Below are positions 4,142-52,723 of a stretch of 64,000 nt of DNA, one piece after another. Each line of letters opens with the position of its first letter. Position 1 is the stretch's first letter. The notes under the pieces were generated by a model, which was given only the letters and a program-made list of their open reading frames with translations, ran no database searches and was not told where the DNA came from. Origin of the DNA: an uncultured Methanoregulaceae archaeon (lineage in GTDB: Archaea; Halobacteriota; Methanomicrobia; Methanomicrobiales; Methanospirillaceae); NCBI GenBank assembly GCA_963841015.1, contig CAWJAX010000004.1, forward strand, positions 32,001 through 96,000. Direction: 5' to 3'. The position numbers and the translations under genes were made by a program.

Positions 4142-4576
4142 TCATGGATTTTCATTAAATTCACGTGCCTGTTCGTTTCTCAGCTGAATCCGGTACATTA
4201 TCACGAACCCGAGACCGAATAGGAATACAAGGGACGAGTGCACGGCATTGAACATGAGTTCGTTTCCCCGGGCGCCGGACAGAAATGAGATCCAGAAGAT
4301 CGGGCAGAATATCCCGATGAGCATTATACCATACCCGATTTTTATATTGCTTTTCAGGTGGATTTCCCGGTTGGTGTTCCATTCAAGGGGTGTTCCCGTT
4401 TCCCCCCGCAGGAACTGGAGGACCTTTTTGCCAAGCATTGTGTAGGGACAGCAGGAGATCAAAAAACTGATGAATCCGCGTAGCCCTTGTTTTTGTCCCA
4501 CCGATGACTCTGATACCGGGCAGCGGATCCCGGGTGCATCACCGGAACAATTCTGTCTGATGAGCTGTCCTTTCAT
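4142..4576 (-). CDS. Membrane protein, paralog of 3844-4098 (start uncertain)
   Basis: IGYGIMLIGIFCPIFWISFLSG..AVHS; divergent from the HxlR-type regulator. Confidence 0.55.
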   Translation of the reverse strand: MKGQLIRQNCSGDAPGIRCPVSESSVGQKQGLRGFISFLISCCPYTMLGKKVLQFLRGETGTPLEWNTNREIHLKSNIKIGYGIMLIGIFCPIFWISFLSGARGNELMFNAVHSSLVFLFGLGFVIMYRIQLRNEQAREFNENP

Positions 4577-4658
4577 TATTCAAATGTGTGACATTACTAA
4601 ATTTATAGGGGATACTAATTTAGATTTAATATACTAACAAAAAACATAGTGATATTGC

Positions 4659-5030
4659 ATGATGAAAGATCCTTCCTGTTATTTTTGCCCGGTGGAAGGC
4701 ACACTCGATGTGATCGGCGGCAAATGGAAACCGCTGATCATCTGGTTCCTGAGAAAACGTGTCCTGCGGTTCAGTGATCTCAGGCGGTCGATTCCCGGCA
4801 TCACCGATGTGATGCTGACAAAACAGTTACGGGAATTGGAACAGGATGGTATTATCAGACGAAAAGTGTATACCCAGGTCCCTCCCAAGGTCGAATATTC
4901 ACTTACACCTCTTGGGATGACGGTTATCCCGCTCCTCAATGCTCTCTGCGATTGGGCGATCGAGCATATGAAGATCCCGATGATTGACGATAATGAAATT
5001 ATTGTGTGTGGAAGAAAGAAGAAAAAATGA
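4659..5030 (+). CDS. HxlR-family winged-helix transcriptional regulator
   Basis: CPVEGTLDVIGGKWK, LTKQLRELE, VPPKVEYSLT. Confidence 0.92.
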   Translation: MMKDPSCYFCPVEGTLDVIGGKWKPLIIWFLRKRVLRFSDLRRSIPGITDVMLTKQLRELEQDGIIRRKVYTQVPPKVEYSLTPLGMTVIPLLNALCDWAIEHMKIPMIDDNEIIVCGRKKKK

Positions 5031-7933: not shown

Positions 7934-8845
7934 GTGTCCCCAACCATTAACCGTGCACAATCAACAGAAAAAAGCCATCTTTCCCCTCCTGGCGGAACGG
8001 GAATCCGGATCGTAATTACCGGAAAGGGCGGGGTCGGTAAAACCACCATTACCGCTCTTCTGGCCCACCTGTTTGCACAGGAAGGGTTCAGGGTCCTCGC
8101 TGTTGACGGGGATCCTCAGCAGAACCTTGCAGTCACCATGGGTATTCTGCCGCAGGATGCAGAGCGGATAGTACCGGTTTCGCAGAGTACTGATTACCTT
8201 CGGGAAAAAACCGGCGCCGGCCCGGGAATATCCCCGGGGGGACTTCTTACCCTCAATCCTGATGTCAGTGATGTCATTGACCGGTTCTCGGTCAGCGTTG
8301 CCAAAAACCTCCGGCTCCTAGTGATGGGTGGCGTCAGCCAGGCTGGTGGCGGTTGTCTCTGTCCTGAGTATACGCTCCTTTCAGCTATCTTCCGTCATAT
8401 GCGTCTTCTTCCTGATGAAGTAGTCCTTCTTGACACCCCGGCGGGAATGGAGCATTTCGGCAGAGCGGTCGCAGACGGTTTTTCCTGTGCGCTGGTCGTT
8501 GCTGACCCGTCCTATAATGCGCTCGCTGTCGCAGAGGAATCTGCAGGGCTTGCACAGCAGCTGGGAATCCAGGATAGAATCCTGGTAGTAAACAGGGTAC
8601 ACAAGCAGGCAGAGGTTGATAAAATACAAGAAATGATGGAGGCAGTTACAGGATTTTCCCGGATGGTTTTTTTACCCTGTGATCCTGAAATAATTCATCT
8701 CGAACCTGCAGTCAACCGGCTCCTTTCACGTGAATCCGTGTTTATTGATGAAATGCGTTTACTTGCAGCAACAGTTGCTGCACAAGAAGAGAACAGGCCC
8801 TCAGCAGTGTTGAAAAAAAATTGCAGACAGGAACTGTCAAGATGA
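7934..8845 (+). CDS. cooC: CODH nickel-insertion ATPase
   Basis: GKGGVGKT, GGGCLCPE (CxC Ni site), AGMEHFGR; directly follows cooS. Confidence 0.88.
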   Translation: MSPTINRAQSTEKSHLSPPGGTGIRIVITGKGGVGKTTITALLAHLFAQEGFRVLAVDGDPQQNLAVTMGILPQDAERIVPVSQSTDYLREKTGAGPGISPGGLLTLNPDVSDVIDRFSVSVAKNLRLLVMGGVSQAGGGCLCPEYTLLSAIFRHMRLLPDEVVLLDTPAGMEHFGRAVADGFSCALVVADPSYNALAVAEESAGLAQQLGIQDRILVVNRVHKQAEVDKIQEMMEAVTGFSRMVFLPCDPEIIHLEPAVNRLLSRESVFIDEMRLLAATVAAQEENRPSAVLKKNCRQELSR

Positions 8846-8935
8846 TGAAGCCTTGCTAAAAACATAATCTCCGTTTAAGATGAGCAGATCATTCCTGCCC
8901 ATTGTCCTTTTTTTCCTTTGCTATTACAAAGCCAT

Positions 8936-9359
8936 TTATGGGGTTTTCGGTTTCCCATGCCTATGATCGCCCGGTACCCACCGTCCCCCATCCTTTGTCA
9001 GCTCTTTTTTCCAGATGGGAACACCGGCTTTGATTGCCTCAATAATAAACCGGGATCCGGCGTAAGCCTCTTTTCGGTGTCCTGCAGCAACAATGATGAT
9101 CAGTATATTCTCACCCACCGCAAGCCGCCCAATACGGTGGATGATATCGACATGCAGGAGCCGGAACTGTTCAGTCGCGTCTTTGGCAATTTTTTCCAGT
9201 TCCTGTGTTGCGACATCTTCGTACGCTTCGAGTTCCATCTCGGTAATATCGTCATCTCTGACGATACCATCGAAGACCACCACAGTCTCCCGTCCCCTGT
9301 TTCTTTGCTGCCTGAATGAGACCCCCGATATCGACATCATCTGTCTGGATTGAAATCAT
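8936..9359 (-). CDS. moaE: Molybdopterin synthase catalytic subunit (one extra base near 9286)
   Basis: FDGIVR, HRIGRL, HRKEA, KxxVPIWKKE. The N-terminus MISIQTDDVDIG..KQGTG starts at 9359 in another frame. Confidence 0.85.
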
Positions 9360-9371
9360 GCTTCACCTTAA

Positions 9372-9649
9372 TTATCCTCCCGCAACCGGGGGAAAACTGC
9401 AATCTCATCACCATCGGTAACCGGGGTTTTTGCCGCATCAGCGATATCGATCCGTTTACCGTTTTTCATAAGGATGACAAACTCCCGAAACTCGCCTTTC
9501 TCATCAAAGATAGCAGCGTATCCCTCGGGATTTTTCTTTGCGACCGTGGTAATCAGCGGGGTGAACATTGTTCCCGCTGCCACATCAGTCATGATATCGC
9601 TCCCGAGCAGTTCACGGAACCGTGCAAAAAACCGGATCTTAACGCTCAT
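9372..9649 (-). CDS. moaD: MoaD/SAMP1-like ubiquitin-fold sulfur carrier (one base missing in a C/G run near 9390)
   Basis: VKIRFFARFRE...DGDEIAVFP; adding one C gives the canonical FPPVAGG-stop. Confidence 0.85.
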
Positions 9650-43055: not shown

Positions 43056-44307
43056 ATGGGAGCAACAATCGTAGAGAAAATATTTTCCCGGAAATGTGGC
43101 AGGGATATTCAGGCTGGTGAAGTAGTCATGTCGCCCCTTGATGGTGCGATGATCCATGATATTACCGGCCCCCTTGCGATCCAGAAGTTCTACGAGATGG
43201 GGGGATCAAAGGTTTTTAACCCCGAACGCGTTATCATGCTCTTTGATCACCAGATACCGGCAGACTCTATTCCCGCTGCGGAGAACCACGTCTACATGCG
43301 GAGATTTGCCGCAGAACAGAAGATCCACAATTATGATATCAATGAAGGGGTCTGCCATCAGGTAGTAGTGGAAAAAGGACGTGCAGCACCGGGCGAGATC
43401 GTGGTTGGGGCAGATTCCCATACCTGCATGTATGGGGCAGTCGGCGCATTTGCTACCGGCATCGGATCAACCGACATGGGATTTGTCCTGAAGTATGGCG
43501 CTCTGTACTTTAAAGTACCCTGAGACCATCCGTGCGGAGGTCTACGGAAAATTCCCCCGGCGTGTCGGGGCAAAAGACCTGATCCTCTCCATCGCAGCAG
43601 ACATTGGTGCCGATGGAGCAACCTACAAGGCGATAGAATTTGTTGGAAAGACTATCTCAAAAATGGATATGCCAGGGCGGATGACCTGCTGCAATATGGC
43701 CATTGAAATGGGAGCAAAAGCGGGTATAGTCGCTCCGGATAAAATCACCTGGGATTACATGAAAGGGAGGCGAAAAATGAAACCGTTCCCGCTGGAGAGC
43801 GATGAGGATGCAGACTATCTTGCAAAACGGTCCTACAACGTCTCGGATATGGAGCCACAGGTGGCAGTGCCACATAATGTGGATACCGGGGTTCCTGTAG
43901 GTGAAGTTGCCGGAACACCGGTAGACCAGGTGTTCATCGGTTCATGCACGAACGGGCGGTTTGAGGATCTGGAGGAGGCCGCTGAGGTACTGGGCAGGAA
44001 GAAGTTCAACCCGAATGTCAGGGTTATCATCATTCCGGCATCCCGGGATGAATATATCAAAAGCCTCCGCGCCGGCCTCATCGAAAAGTTCGTGAAAGCC
44101 GGATCACTCGTGGAAGCACCGTGTTGCGGTCCCTGTATGGGCGGAGCATTCGGGTTGCTGGCGCCAGGAGAGGTATCCCTGTCAACATCGAACCGGAACT
44201 TTAAGGGGAGACAGGGAAGCACTGAAGGTAAGGTGTACCTCTGCTCCCCGGCAACTGCTGCTGCAAGTGCAATCACCGGTGTGATCACTGATCCCCGGGA
44301 GGTCTGA
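43056..44307 (+). CDS. leuC: 3-isopropylmalate dehydratase (or homoaconitase) large subunit (one extra C near 43519)
   Basis: [38 protein letters not shown]; halves join at FKVP-ETIR. Confidence 0.82.
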
Positions 44308-47088: not shown

Positions 47089-47505
47089 TTAGACTGTTAC
47101 TGATATCCGTTTCTGATCCTGAGATACTTTTCGCGTCCTGTACAGCTGCAGGGTCTGTTTCGGTATTTTCATGATGAAAGCATGCCGATCTTTTCCGTAC
47201 ATAACGTTTCGGAGTGCTCTGAGGGAAACGGTGAAACATCCGTCATTGAAAAGATCAATATTCAGGGCTTTTCCTGACACGGAGATCTGGGCAAGACCGC
47301 AGGTGGATCCCAGATAATAATTCCAGTTATGGGTCAGCTCTTCGACCTGGACAAATACCCGGCCGGTAATAGCACCGGCAAGACCGTCTCTGCGAATTGC
47401 ATATCGTAGACCATGGATATGTATCTCGATTACTTCGTGCATGACCCCGTCATTGTCAAATGCCCTGATTCCGGTCCTTTGGAGATATCCTGCTTTTTCC
47501 ATCAT
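47089..47505 (-). CDS. Hypothetical protein
   Basis: 138 aa ORF filling the gap; GGTGG and TATA-like sequence upstream; SVSGKALNI motif. Confidence 0.55.
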   Translation of the reverse strand: MMEKAGYLQRTGIRAFDNDGVMHEVIEIHIHGLRYAIRRDGLAGAITGRVFVQVEELTHNWNYYLGSTCGLAQISVSGKALNIDLFNDGCFTVSLRALRNVMYGKDRHAFIMKIPKQTLQLYRTRKVSQDQKRISVTV

Positions 47506-47644: not shown

Positions 47645-48766
47645 TTATTTTTCCCGGTCCATGCATGCATTCAGGACATTCTCGACAAAGGAAAGGGTGC
47701 CGGTAATACCTGCAACAGAATGCGGGGCCAGCTTCACCATCCCCCTGAGTGGGGGTGTAAGCCCGACAAAAGCAGCCTTGCTTTCCACAGACCGCTCAAA
47801 CGAGGACCCTATGACGAGATCAGGATTAAACTGCCGGATAAGTGACGTTACACGGGAAAAACCCTGCACGTGCTCACCCGGATAGGAAGAGATGCCTGGT
47901 TCGTTGCGGGAACCAACATACAGGATATCTGCATCAAGGTAATGCTTCAGGGTCCTCGCTGCAAATGTTGCATACGAAAAACCACCAAAAATGATTGCCT
48001 GAGGGGGATTGAACCTGCGGAGATATTTATCACATGCCCTGACAATTCTTTCATCTTCCCGCTCAATTTCTTCGTTAACCGGACTGATATCTGCTTCCGG
48101 ATATACCAGGGCAATTTTCTTAAATGTAGCACGTATTTCTTCAAATCCGAGCGTGCCTCCAAGCCACGTTCCGACACCACTGGAAAAATCCATGTTTGTT
48201 CCCATTGTATACCTGGCTGCATGCCCCACACGCTCAAGCCGGTCCGAGCAAAAAACAGTGCCCACGGATACTGATGCACAGCCCAGCAACCGCACAATTT
48301 CCCGCACATTACCGCAGGAAAATGGATCGAAAAGACAGGCGCCATCAATATTTATCCCTTCTACACCTGGATCAACCATCGGTTCAAGAACGGAGAGTGC
48401 CTTTTTATATCCTGTCTCTACATCTCCCGAAAAACCCGGGCTGTCAACAAGGATCACATCGTACTCTTTGAGCATCGACCGTACATCCTCACCAAGTATT
48501 GCGGGAACGCAGGTCATAACCACAGCAATCTTTTTGCTCTTCTCAGAAAGCCCGTCAAGCACTTCATGAAGTCGCTGCTCTGAACCGAAAATTACCTCGT
48601 TCTCCATGATAAAGGTGCCATGGAGGGGAACATGGAGGAGCGTTGCAGGATAAAAGTAGCATCCGCTCGACCCATGGATCACCACAGTTATACCCTCAAA
48701 ACCCGCCAGACATGCTGCAGCTCCGGTCATAGCACATGGCCAGAGGGGATTTTCGCAGTCAGGCAT
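47645..48766 (-). CDS. Nitrogenase component-1-like subunit (short, group IV-like)
   Basis: WPCAMTG, HGSSGC, MTCVPAILGED, PDLVIG; ~373 aa. Confidence 0.8.
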   Translation of the reverse strand: MPDCENPLWPCAMTGAAACLAGFEGITVVIHGSSGCYFYPATLLHVPLHGTFIMENEVIFGSEQRLHEVLDGLSEKSKKIAVVMTCVPAILGEDVRSMLKEYDVILVDSPGFSGDVETGYKKALSVLEPMVDPGVEGINIDGACLFDPFSCGNVREIVRLLGCASVSVGTVFCSDRLERVGHAARYTMGTNMDFSSGVGTWLGGTLGFEEIRATFKKIALVYPEADISPVNEEIEREDERIVRACDKYLRRFNPPQAIIFGGFSYATFAARTLKHYLDADILYVGSRNEPGISSYPGEHVQGFSRVTSLIRQFNPDLVIGSSFERSVESKAAFVGLTPPLRGMVKLAPHSVAGITGTLSFVENVLNACMDREK

Positions 48767-49799
48767 GGATTGCACGCCTCCACCTGTGGAGCATCCGCAT
48801 GACACCGGTTGTCCCCACGGGGGGTGATATCTCCAGGGGAACCCTGCATCCATCACGATCAATCGTAATATCGATCTCGTCTGCAATTTCGCAGGCCAGC
48901 CTGAAGGTATCAGAATCCTTAAGGGCAGGATCAAATGCTATGGAGGTACCGGTTATATCGTTAAATTCCGTAAGGATCTCTTCCTGCAGGACTTTTTCCT
49001 CGTGTACGGCTCGCAGGTATTTCACACCAAAACTATCTGCAACCGATTCGAGAAAGCTGATTGTCCCTGAAAGTCCAACCGGAAAGGATGGAATAAAAGG
49101 TGTAGCGAATCGTTGGTGAAGCCGTTCTCCGACAGGACGCAGATCATCGTCACGGAGAATGTTGAGCCGCGCAGCACCGAGACGGGTTATGTCAGTCATG
49201 GAACAGTCCCGCACGAACCGCAGATTTACGGATATGCCGAGTGCGGAAAGTAACCGGGAAACTTCTGCATAGTTCTCTTCAACTTCATATTCGAGATTTT
49301 TTTCACCGATAATATTCACGCACCAGCCCTTTGTGCAGGGTTCAGCGGTATCAGCGAGGGCATTGAGGGCATTATTCACGCCATTCTGGAAAGTACCCCC
49401 AAGGAATCCCCCGCTTGGAACCGGGAGAACAGGCACTCCACGGTCCCTGCGGCAGAGAGCTGCAACGTCATCGCCAATAGTGTCAGCGATGCAGGTTGAA
49501 AGAACGAAAACAGCGCCAATATGTCGCTTTGCAACCGCATCGAGAGTCCTTTCGAGCGCCGCTTCACCACCAAAAATAATATCACTTTCGGATAACCCTG
49601 TTGAGATCAAATCCGGCATGGTAATATGATCGTTATTAAACCCCGTTGCATGTAAAAGAGAAAAGTTATGATGGGTGCACCCTTTCGGCCCGTGTATTAT
49701 GGTAACGCTATCCCGTACATGGGTCGTCACCGAGAGTGCTCCGGTAAGCGTGCACCCCCCGTACCTAGATATATTCAATGGCAAGGGATTCGAGGTCAT
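48759..49799 (-). CDS. Nitrogenase component-1-like subunit (short, group IV-like)
   Basis: [43 protein letters not shown]. Confidence 0.82.
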
Positions 49800-50577
49800 C
49801 AATTTCAAGGGGGGTCGGGATAGAGAACCGGGTGTTTTTCATAATACGTGCTGCAAGGGACCTGTACTGTGCTGCCTGATCAGAGTCCGGATCATACTCA
49901 AGCACCGTCTTCCGGTTGAGTTCTGCAAGCTGCACAACACGATCCCGGGGGATATACTGTATAAGTGAACTGTTCACCCGCTGTGCAAATTCACTCACGA
50001 GCTCTTCTTCGCGAGGCTGGTTCTTTGCATTACAGATAACCCCGGCAAGCCGGCACGTGCTTTTTGTCCTTGAGGAAAGGCGTTTTATCGCCTTACAGAT
50101 ATTATTCGCAGCGTACAGCGACATTAACTCCCCGGAAGTAACGAGGTAGATATCCTGAGCATAACCCTCACGCATGGGCATGGCAAATCCACCACAGACG
50201 ACATCCCCGAGGACATCATACACGATGACATCCCCTTTGAGTGCCCCGAATTTCTCAAGAAGCTGGAACGTGGCGATAATCCCCCGTCCGGCACACCCGA
50301 CACCTGGTTCCGGTCCTCCCGCCTCAACACACCGTACCCCGTTAAAACCAGTATACACGATATCTGAAAGAGAGAGTGCGGCTTCACCCCGGACCCTGAC
50401 CAGATCCATGACAGTGGGAATGAATGTCCCGTGCATCAGCATACGTGTGCTGTCCCGTTTGGGGTCGCATCCGATCTGCATGATATCCAGGCCCTGAAGG
50501 GAAAGAGCAGCGGACAGATTCGCCGAGGTAGTTGATTTCCCGATGCCTCCCTTTCCATACAGGGCTATCTGCTTCAT
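49765..50577 (-). CDS. NifH/BchL/CfbC-family Fe protein
   Basis: [41 protein letters not shown]. Confidence 0.92.
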
Positions 50578-50729: not shown

Positions 50730-51725
50730 TTATGATAGATAGACTGGAGGAGGTATTTGTATAAAGCGGGCAGCATTCTTCAGGCTGAAAATATGTTTAT
50801 ATGCCAATTCAATTTGTCGTTTACTCAGTTTCGTGCTTTTTTGGACTATATCTGCAGGCAGATGGTTTTCATCAGCATATAAAAGCTGGTCGAGGATAGT
50901 ATAGGGTAACCTCATGGAAATTTCTTCGTCCGATGTGTAGTGACTCCAGGTGTCCGGGCTTGGTGCCCTTGCTATGATCCTTTTGTCAACATGTAATAAT
51001 TCTGCAAGTTTATAGACCTGTGATTTATAGCAATTTGCAATAGGTTCCAGATCAACTCCCCCGTCTCCATACTTTACGAAAAATCCTGTGAGCGATTCAG
51101 TTTTATTCGTAGTTCCACATACGGCATAATTCCTTTTCTCAGCATGCATGTACTCAACAATCATCCGTGTTCTCTGTTTCACATTCTGGAGACTAAGAAC
51201 GGTAAAGAACTGTTGTGCGGTCAATCGTTTTGTGCCGATGGTTTTTCCGTTTTTCAACAGAATAAGCGAGGGTATATTGAGCATTTCCGCAGATGCCATC
51301 ATTGAGGGGCGCAATAATGATGTGGTATGATATGCCGGATCATACCCGGGGAACAACTCGCGGATCAGTGATTCTTTTTTAGAATAGATATTGAATGCTT
51401 CAAGCATGGGGGTGATCGGAACTTCCTCATACCTGATTTTTAACGCTTTACAATGATCTATCCCCAGTTCCCTGCTGGAAGGAGCCGATTCCTTCTCTGG
51501 AAGGATTAGGCCGTATACCCTCTCAGGGCCTAGAGCATCAACGGAAAGAGCCGCAATTACTGCAGAATCAATTCCTCCTGATACACCAATCACAATGCCA
51601 TCTTTCTTAAACTGATCACGTACTGTTTGCTTAATAAAAGTGGATAATTTTTCTTTGAGATCTTCACTATTTTTAAGCATCTCTTTTTTTATATCAAACC
51701 CGTCTTTAAAGGTTCTTTTAACCAT
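50730..51725 (-). CDS. nadE: NH3-dependent NAD synthetase-like N-type ATP pyrophosphatase
   Basis: SGGIDS, NVKQRTRM, GTTNKTE, GFFVKYGDG, PSPD; long insertion; AT-rich. Confidence 0.7.
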   Translation of the reverse strand: MVKRTFKDGFDIKKEMLKNSEDLKEKLSTFIKQTVRDQFKKDGIVIGVSGGIDSAVIAALSVDALGPERVYGLILPEKESAPSSRELGIDHCKALKIRYEEVPITPMLEAFNIYSKKESLIRELFPGYDPAYHTTSLLRPSMMASAEMLNIPSLILLKNGKTIGTKRLTAQQFFTVLSLQNVKQRTRMIVEYMHAEKRNYAVCGTTNKTESLTGFFVKYGDGGVDLEPIANCYKSQVYKLAELLHVDKRIIARAPSPDTWSHYTSDEEISMRLPYTILDQLLYADENHLPADIVQKSTKLSKRQIELAYKHIFSLKNAARFIQIPPPVYLS

Positions 51726-51830
51726 AGTTCACCATATTTTAATATACTTGTTACTAGAAATACTATACCAAACACTTTATTTAAACATTTGCCTTACACT
51801 TCAATTATATAGCAAACGATGTGAACCACC

Positions 51831-52079
51831 ATGAATGAAATACAAGGAGATATACTGGAATTTTTGAAAACGCAGGGATTTCTGAATGAAAAAATTTCAT
51901 TACAGGAAAACGACTCCTTATCAGAAACGGGTGTAATCGATTCAATCACCTTACTTCAGCTTATTGATTTCCTTGAGAGTAAATATCACATTCAAATTCC
52001 TGTAGAAATGATAACTCCTGAAAATTTTGATACCCTGGCCGGAATCAGTCAATCGGTCATGAAATTGAAAAAAAGCTGA
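51831..52079 (+). CDS. Acyl carrier protein
   Basis: Acidic 82 aa protein; GVIDSI (phosphopantetheine Ser), PENFDT. Confidence 0.85.
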   Translation: MNEIQGDILEFLKTQGFLNEKISLQENDSLSETGVIDSITLLQLIDFLESKYHIQIPVEMITPENFDTLAGISQSVMKLKKS

Positions 52080-52516
52080 ATAAAAAACTGCAGGGTTCTG
52101 ACATATGAAGAACCGGAGATGATCTCATCGCAGATACCTGCCTGTTGACCGCTGGCTTTTCCAACAATTATTTGTGATCAGCATATCTTTTTATCAGGAT
52201 GGGACACTGTTCATTCTCCCGATGATATTATATTTCATATCATTTGGAGCCGGTATTTTGTTCTTTAAGATACTGAACCGGGGAGAACCGCTAAAAAAAC
52301 ATTGAATCCCGGTTGGCTTCATCCCACCGGTTTATCCACCCCACAATGCGATCACTCCACAAAAAGGAAATATATCATCATTCCAGGTGCAGGGATGTAA
52401 GGAGGTACAGGCCCAAATCCCTGCTCTGCCTTACCTGTGCCTTTTATTGCCTGCCCGGGATAAACGGGATTCTCCAAAGTCAGAACCTGAGTTTTTTTAA
52501 AAAACATATTTTTTTT

Positions 52517-52723
52517 GGCTCTGGAGAATTCCTTTTCCATGGATATGAAATTCAAGATGCTGGTACGAATGAAGGAGGGGAGAGTGCCTGTCCCCCCATG
52601 ACGCCCCTGCTCTTAGCGATCATACCAGGCACCTGTTCGGCAGTTATCGCATCGGGGGAGCCACAGCGGCGGGGGTGAAACCCCCTTGAGCGTTTGGTTT
52701 GTAATTGAGCATTTCTGCAAAGC
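52517..52723 (+). mobile_element. MITE-like repeat copy C
   Basis: GGCTCTGGAGAA ... ATTTCTGCAAAGC imperfect terminal inverted repeat; conserved core. Confidence 0.8.

Follow-up and report, generated by a model that had tools for sequence, protein, structure and literature searches.

Nitrogenase-like enzymes carry out unexpected chemistry, including steps of chlorophyll and F430 synthesis and a C-S cleavage that releases methane and ethylene. CfbC is the ATP-driven electron donor in the synthesis of coenzyme F430, where it works with the catalytic partner CfbD, and in this system (CfbCD, Group IV-B) the component-1 subunit CfbD is homomeric, measures ~350 aa and has no ligands for an L- or M-type cluster. 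Dark-operative protochlorophyllide oxidoreductase (DPOR; BchL/BchNB) and chlorophyllide oxidoreductase (COR; BchX/BchYZ), both of Group V, combine an ATP-driven Fe protein with a heteromeric N/B-like pair that has an Fe-S site at its interface and likewise no ligands for a second metallocluster. NifEN, the FeMo-cofactor maturase, is an alpha/beta pair working with NifH, and MarBHDK, NfaBHDK and IsrBHDK are non-nitrogenase reductases of the same superfamily. Here we describe a locus in a 64,000-nucleotide stretch of DNA (hereafter the window) from an uncultured archaeon of the Methanoregulaceae, in which the gene for a NifH-type Fe protein (H) is followed by genes for a short alpha-type subunit (D) and a beta-type subunit (K). 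On balance we favour the view that these genes form an operon, cfbC-nflD-nflK of a Methanoregula species, for an uncharacterised heteromeric nitrogenase-like reductase that is fed by CfbC. An earlier note on the same DNA had described three overlapping genes for an Fe protein and two short subunits, and this layout was borne out: all three lie on the minus strand where the note placed them (Table 1), with overlaps of 35 nt between H and D and of 8 nt between D and K (ATGCCTGA). The start of D, an ATG at 49799, is concordant with 40 of 40 aligned homologues, and the first methionine of K is invariant in an alignment of K homologues.

The Fe protein matches the Pfam family Fer4_NifH with 357 bits, carries the Walker A motif GKGGIGKS, and has two cluster ligands, Cys95 and Cys128, that are invariant in 21 of 21 sequences. 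It passes the NCBIfam model NF033200 (F430_CfbC) with 416.3 bits (415.8 in the genome search) against a cut-off of 402, while on the nifH model it stays below the cut-off (389.2 versus 394.35 bits). On the CfbC model the H proteins of the order Methanomicrobiales, to which this archaeon belongs, score 412-420 bits, Nif-type NifH proteins 382-395 bits, and the products of those cfbC genes that lie next to cfbD in other orders 400-429 bits, with a single exception above the cut-off. We conclude that H is orthologous to CfbC, the ATP-dependent reductase that acts in making coenzyme F430; the assertion of the earlier note that no cfb gene is adjacent was therefore incorrect, since the Fe protein gene is itself cfbC.

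This Fe protein appears to be the only one available. In the source genome (2.28 Mb in 5 contigs, 94% complete) a Pfam search found H as the sole NifH-family gene, the two further NifH matches, of 44 and 24 bits, being weak ones to other P-loop ATPases. A NifH-family gene is present in all 71 Methanomicrobiales genomes of at least 95% completeness, and 51 of them have exactly one by a count made from the table of matches, the remaining 20 carrying extra NifH genes of Nif or fusion type; one NifH each is also given for Methanospirillum hungatei and Methanoculleus marisnigri in Table S1 of Anderson et al. 2009. The true CfbD of the source genome is encoded on another contig (C3:161564-162610; 490.8 bits on TIGR03282), and CfbD is single-copy in all 71 genomes. 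Whereas cfbD adjoins cfbC in 15 of 27 CfbD-bearing genomes of other orders, it does so in none of 8 genomes of Methanomicrobiales, so in this order cfbC has been separated from cfbD and joined to D/K. The earlier note had expected a separate cfbCD elsewhere in the genome; cfbD is indeed elsewhere, but there is no second cfbC. Because H is the sole NifH-family gene and passes the CfbC model, and only cfbD lies elsewhere, the Fe protein is most readily seen as shared and not as dedicated to D/K.

Both D and K belong by Pfam score to the nitrogenase component 1 superfamily (Oxidored_nitro, PF00148; gathering score 28.6). K matches this profile with 115 bits over positions 1-398 of 399 and D with 190 bits over positions 1-255 only, so the third domain of D is short or divergent; the two proteins are 28% identical over 206 residues. 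The earlier note had seen three N-terminal cluster cysteines in each subunit, and all six prove to be invariant, being present in 21 of 21 genera-level sequences and 40 of 40 homologues, where they align to the P-cluster cysteines of NifD/NifE and NifK. The alignment of D to NifE/NifD stops at about residue 260-280 and D ends before the His-bearing C-terminal region, confirming for this subunit the note's remark that the region with the FeMo-co histidine is missing. Opposite the cysteine that binds the L- or M-cluster in NifE/NifD (C275 of NifD), D shows either Arg216 or a gap in two alignments. AlphaFold2 models of D and K reached predicted local distance difference test (pLDDT) scores of 89.5 and 93.4, and a Foldseek search with the D model returned BchB at the top, although BchB, NifE/N, NifD/K and MarD/K all fell between E values of 1e-18 and 1e-16 with no discrimination among them.

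D and K fail every curated NCBIfam model tested (CfbD, nifD/K/E/N, BchN, BchB and BchZ). On the CfbD model TIGR03282 they score 41.3 and 49.1 bits, respectively, against a cut-off of 268.4, and the best curated score, that of D on nifE, is 116.6 bits against 505.1; the nifK model gives 46.2 bits (cut-off 427.3), and the best scores on the Bch models are 71.2 bits for BchB (TIGR01278; cut-off 490), 49.4 for BchN (TIGR01279; 420) and 44.2 for BchZ (529). Among solved structures, phmmer with D found the NifEN fusion 9i0g (94.4 bits), NifD (75), BchB (66) and MarD (9FMG_A, 47.7), 9FMG being MarDK2H2 (PMC12552129). With the CfbD of its own genome D can be aligned by BLAST over only 100 residues, at 30% identity, and this CfbD has no cysteine opposite C16 of D, unlike D and K with three cysteines each.

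We built two trees from quick searches, tree 1 with 138 rows under LG+G4 and tree 2 with 89 rows under LG+C20 PMSF, the references in tree 2 being 14 CfbD, bacterial and Methanoregula NifD/K/E/N, one BchN and one BchB; both are without Mar, Nfa, Isr, Group VI and BchY/Z references, and they carry SH-aLRT support only, with deep nodes unreliable. D forms one clade (support 91 in tree 1 and 99 in tree 2) and so does K (support 100). The 14 CfbD rows form a clade of their own (support 100) on a branch of 1.58 that excludes both subunits, in keeping with the failed CfbD model and with the note's view that they do not fall within CfbD. K was placed among NifK/N- and BchB-type sequences, and D, unnamed bacterial nitrogen fixation-like (NFL) proteins and NifH-NifE fusions make up a 30-row group (support 98) next to NifD/E and BchN. 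Both subunits are outside the NifD/E and NifK/N clades and neither joins the single BchN or BchB reference, the Bch branches being long. The phylogeny that the earlier note had called for thus separates D/K from the Nif, BchN/BchB and CfbD references, Mar and Nfa being absent from the trees. We conclude that D/K belong to no characterised clade among those compared (Nif, BchN/BchB and CfbD); membership in Groups IV-A, C, D, E or F is argued against from outside the trees, because the locus has no B gene, D has no Cys ligand, the subunits are short and the MarD score is low.

Set against the systems described above, the locus resembles CfbCD in having cfbC as its Fe protein gene, a methanogen host, component-1 subunits of about the same size and no L/M-cluster ligands; it differs in that two different adjacent genes, D and K, predict a heteromer in place of one homomeric subunit, in that they form clades separate from CfbD, and in being restricted to one order, CfbD occurring in 35 of the 61 phylum-sample genomes. 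The note's description as 'DPOR-like' is no more than an analogy. D and K share with DPOR and COR a predicted heteromeric N/B-like make-up, the ATP-driven Fe protein, a predicted interface Fe-S site and the lack of ligands for a second metallocluster. K, however, supplies a cysteine at each of its three positions, which gives the pair a P-cluster-type pattern of six Cys where DPOR has 3 Cys + Asp, the one Asp coming from BchB (PMC13474568); D and K are shorter than BchN (426 aa) and BchB (522 aa) and remain far below the cut-offs of both, and they have no photosynthesis context. The note's proposal of a heteromeric nitrogenase-like component 1 with its Fe protein is supported, as far as this can be predicted from sequence.

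The arrangement of the three genes is highly conserved. Of 69 related loci, 66 have H immediately ahead of D, the remaining three beginning at D, and in 63 K follows D, four of the misses lying at contig ends and two having no match that passed the filter; moreover, H-D-K occurs in all of 20 further genera of the order (one genome each) and is contiguous in 19 of these. Recurrence on this scale means that the arrangement is not due to chance. At a threshold of E <=1e-30, D is present in 193 of 201 Methanomicrobiales genomes (among those of high quality, in 140 of 144) and in 37 of 40 genera, with 191 matches at E <=4e-65. In a 301-genome sample of the phylum, D gave at least 252 bits in 46 of the 47 genomes of its own order, and no full-length D was found in the 254 genomes outside it, where the best match reached 132 bits and the listed matches mostly covered about residues 14-280. 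When 1.84 billion representative proteins were searched with D, ~20 full-length clusters of at least 241 bits were followed by fragments, and then by a 372-aa protein of Bacillota/Limnochordia (166 bits), unnamed NFL proteins, NifH-NifE-like fusions and NifE. The frames of D are intact, with no internal stop in any listed match (193 genomes), and comparison with five relatives gave dN/dS values of 0.14-0.23 (D), 0.08-0.18 (K) and 0.01-0.05 (H). We conclude that D/K are an alpha-type/beta-type pair of old origin, which purifying selection has conserved in nearly the whole of Methanomicrobiales.

The nearest relatives of D in the trees (support 98) are short NFL proteins of Bacillota/Limnochordia and NifH-NifE-like fusions of ~740 aa. 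The closest bacterial one (P0151) resembles D in being short and in following a nifH gene; it is 37% identical over residues 15-305, is likewise uncharacterised, and differs in that its locus is tied to an importer. This locus (L225; 23..7082 of a Bacillota metagenome-assembled genome) encodes, in order, TonB_C, an unknown protein, Peripla_BP_2, FecCD, NifH, the short D and K, and because the Peripla_BP_2/FecCD importer lies beside NifH-D-K, the system would suit a substrate that this lineage takes up as a metal chelate. Fusions of the NifH-NifE-like type, 740-800 aa long, are common in the archaeal phylum (the genomes G033, G051, G077 and G079 and several from outside the order included); they form a well-supported clade of their own and appear to be uncharacterised.

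From these features a mechanism can be proposed. D and K would assemble into a NifDK/BchNB-like heteromer in which the six invariant cysteines bind a single Fe-S centre where the two subunits meet; this centre may be P-cluster-like or consist of one or two [4Fe-4S] clusters, and the heteromer would have no site for an L- or M-type cofactor. CfbC would pass single electrons to D/K upon ATP hydrolysis, and the substrate would be reduced directly beside the interface cluster, as in DPOR, COR and CfbCD. Our leading guess for the substrate, offered tentatively, is a nickel- or tetrapyrrole-type cofactor intermediate, for example an F430-related compound; what favours it is the operon with cfbC, the CfbD-like size of the subunits, the importer of the bacterial cousin and the nickel-related neighbours in relatives. 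Among the latter, a NikR gene comes directly after K in 5 Methanocorpusculum-type loci (L095, at 8219..9378, and L062, L065, L070 and L071) and is followed in two of these five by a CbiM/NikM gene, and in one Methanocorpusculum-type locus Opp/Nik-type ABC ATPases and a methyltransferase precede cfbC, the ATPases being probably the 'ABC transporter' link of Dos Santos et al. 2012. It is conceivable, though we would not call it probable, that one CfbC serves both CfbD and an order-specific D/K that reduces a nickel or cobalt tetrapyrrole, either an F430 derivative or a precursor.

Several points weigh against a CfbC-fed reductase with such a substrate. The nickel-related neighbours could serve cfbC alone, and they are absent from the window; the pairing of CfbC with D/K is deduced from gene order and from the lack of another Fe protein. 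A P-type site of six cysteines normally relays electrons onward to a second cofactor, a point against direct reduction of the substrate, and we know of no Methanomicrobiales-specific cofactor that needs such an enzyme. With identities across the order of 40-62% for D, 39-54% for K and 66-83% for CfbD, D/K evolve about twice as fast as CfbD. Nor is their function essential: D is lacking in three genomes, two (each 99% complete) from a single genus of the same family and one from another genus, and the locus of one such genome reads TrkH, cfbC, ~280 bp and a homologue of the ORF that follows K here (orf138), D/K being cleanly gone and cfbC kept. At least one genus can therefore dispense with D/K, and orf138 has no tie to them. 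Finally, 4 loci from a single family (L092, at 4243..4818, and L093, L098 and L100) have a gene of the NifX/NafY-like family PF02579 convergent to K, and a NifX-like neighbour would better fit a role in cluster handling. The NifX-like proteins next to K are 32-34% identical between genera.

Such a role is the core of the alternative that survives best, that D/K are a NifEN-like scaffold or carrier of Fe-S clusters and not a reductase, which with CfbC and NifB would mature or traffic complex clusters such as the NifB-derived [8Fe-9S-C] cluster of the methyl-coenzyme M reductase (MCR) activation complex. The best sequence matches of D are indeed NifE-type (the fusion 9i0g and the nifE model), and L-type clusters are reported in MCR activation, with a role of NifB suggested (PMC12176620). 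The source genome encodes NifB on a different contig (C2:312744-313556; 352.6 bits against a cut-off of 343.65), and a search of the genome found no nitrogenase, which agrees with reports of methanogens keeping NifB for other purposes. However, D has an invariant arginine in place of the L-cluster cysteine of NifE and lacks most of domain III (Pfam positions 256-399 unmatched), D/K are far below the nifE and nifN cut-offs, and D is outside the NifD/E clade. Moreover, no PF02579 gene exists in the source genome, and other methanogen orders possess NifB and the activation complex but, across the 254 genomes outside the order, no full-length D. We consider this alternative unlikely.

Somewhat more doubtful is the possibility that D/K are a nutrient-acquisition reductase, acting in C-S cleavage or on a nitrogen compound in the manner of Mar, Isr and Nfa, the Group IV enzymes of bacteria. 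These share with our locus the order HDK, Mar and Nfa have the same six P-cluster-type cysteines, and Isr, for which a [4Fe-4S] cluster has been proposed, is likewise reported to be without conserved FeMo-co-type ligands (PMC13474568); the loss in one genus would also suit an accessory role. Isr, Mar and Nfa are defined, however, as BHDK sets (PMC11423573), whereas domain annotation of the region at 39-58 kb of the window contained no radical-SAM gene that could act as B, and no sulfur-metabolism genes are annotated in the region surrounding H-D-K. The archaeal D/K are also without Cys270- and His429-type ligands, they are 100-170 aa shorter than MarD (519 aa) and MarK (466 aa) of the Protein Data Bank (PDB), and the MarD score of D is low, as given above. 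Being joined to a housekeeping cofactor operon and present in nearly all genera, they fit a housekeeping role better. That D/K are a redundant CfbD is improbable: a common Fe protein, the operon with cfbC and sizes of 346 and 373 aa, versus 349 aa for CfbD, speak for it, but CfbD itself is retained in all 71 genomes, the CfbD model is failed by a wide margin, the alignment of D to CfbD is short and the CfbD clade is set off by its long branch. A non-enzymatic D/K, left over as a relic or regulating CfbC by binding to it, is hardly credible, since the faster evolution compared with CfbD and H and the clean loss in one genus are outweighed by intact frames in 193 genomes, dN/dS values of 0.08-0.23 and invariant cluster cysteines. 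The CfbC-fed heteromeric reductase hence remains the explanation that we prefer.

Contigs from sediment RNA libraries, which stem from two studies, cover parts of H, D, K and orf138, and one of the covered stretches spans the D/K junction. These contigs are short, so that no transcript, strand or level can be read from them and uncovered stretches carry no meaning; since DNA can occur in such libraries, they are weak evidence of expression.

The flanking genes are housekeeping genes or unrelated to H-D-K. By Pfam and NCBIfam, an NAD synthase, a flavodiiron-type protein and TrkH lie upstream of cfbC, and downstream of K are the familyless orf138, a PAS protein, genes of isopropylmalate/homoaconitase type and an isocitrate/isopropylmalate dehydrogenase. 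Within 39-58 kb of the window, domain annotation revealed no nifB, nifE, nifN, nifI or bch gene, as the earlier note had stated for the adjacent region. We rejected orf138 as a fourth member of the operon: it has no Pfam, NCBIfam or Atlas match, it is missing after K in 13 of 13 Methanocorpusculum loci, and it is retained in the genus without D/K. It is present in 49 of the 69 related loci. The NAD synthase was rejected as a partner as well, being a true NadE family member (388 bits) that is found at this place only in the two nearest relatives. It belongs to a three-gene block between TrkH and cfbC (a PRK00876-type NAD synthase, an 82-aa acyl-carrier-like ORF and a 121-aa ORF) that is confined to this genome and the two relatives nearest to it (L010 and L011), TrkH abutting cfbC elsewhere; the block looks like a recent insertion. 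Further downstream, one extra base near 43519, in comparison with the close relative L010, breaks the gene for the large subunit of an enzyme of the aconitase family (isopropylmalate/homoaconitase type) into two frames, whereas in L010 it is a single frame; the split reflects an assembly error or else a pseudogene of recent origin.

Table 1. Positions of the genes, conserved residues and neighbouring features in the window
Feature	Position	Strand	Remarks
cfbC (H, NifH-type Fe protein, 270 aa)	49765..50577	minus	Fer4_NifH, NCBIfam F430_CfbC
nflD-like (D, short alpha-type subunit, 346 aa)	48759..49799	minus	PF00148
nflK-like (K, beta-type subunit, 373 aa)	47645..48766	minus	PF00148
H Cys95	50293..50295		cluster ligand
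H Cys128	50194..50196		cluster ligand
D Cys16	49752..49754	minus	invariant
D Cys41	49677..49679	minus	invariant
D Cys103	49491..49493	minus	invariant
D Cys116	49452..49454	minus	near-invariant (21/21 sequences, >=90% of 40)
D Arg216	49152..49154	minus	invariant (40/40), at the place of the NifE/NifD cofactor Cys
K Cys11	48734..48736	minus	invariant
K Cys36	48659..48661	minus	invariant
K Cys86	48509..48511	minus	invariant
Stretch over the D/K junction covered by RNA-library contigs	48654-48844
orf138 (138 aa)	47089..47505	minus	after K
NAD synthase	50730..51725		NadE family
Three-gene block between TrkH and cfbC	50730..52678
Aconitase-family large subunit, both frames	43056..44307	plus	split gene
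First frame	43056..43523	plus
Second frame	43495..44307	plus

The earlier note had put this forward as the window's strongest protein-level candidate for an undescribed system. In the open literature, subscription papers and bioRxiv supplements lying outside the search, we found no function assigned to D/K and no paper naming both CfbC and Methanomicrobiales; the genes themselves have been mentioned, in passing, as the Methanocorpusculum pair Mlab_1040/1039 (Dos Santos et al. 2012), so that the system has not gone wholly undescribed. A 2026 review of the family (PMC13474568) does not treat the archaeal D/K clade in the parts covered here, and it names uncharacterised nitrogenase-like clades as the main open problem of the field. 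The clade described here is archaeal and near-universal in a major order of methanogens of wetlands, sediments and guts, and the system lends itself directly to testing, as it comprises three small genes and offers cultured hosts and a genus that is a natural knockout. If one CfbC does serve two partners, this would be, to our knowledge, the first known case of one Fe protein serving two catalytic partners of different subunit make-up, and it would bear on partner recognition by Fe proteins and on how the heteromeric D/K architecture first evolved. It would also bear on the control of F430 supply and hence on methane formation, and if D/K reduce a tetrapyrrole, they would add a step to the cofactor chemistry of methanogens.

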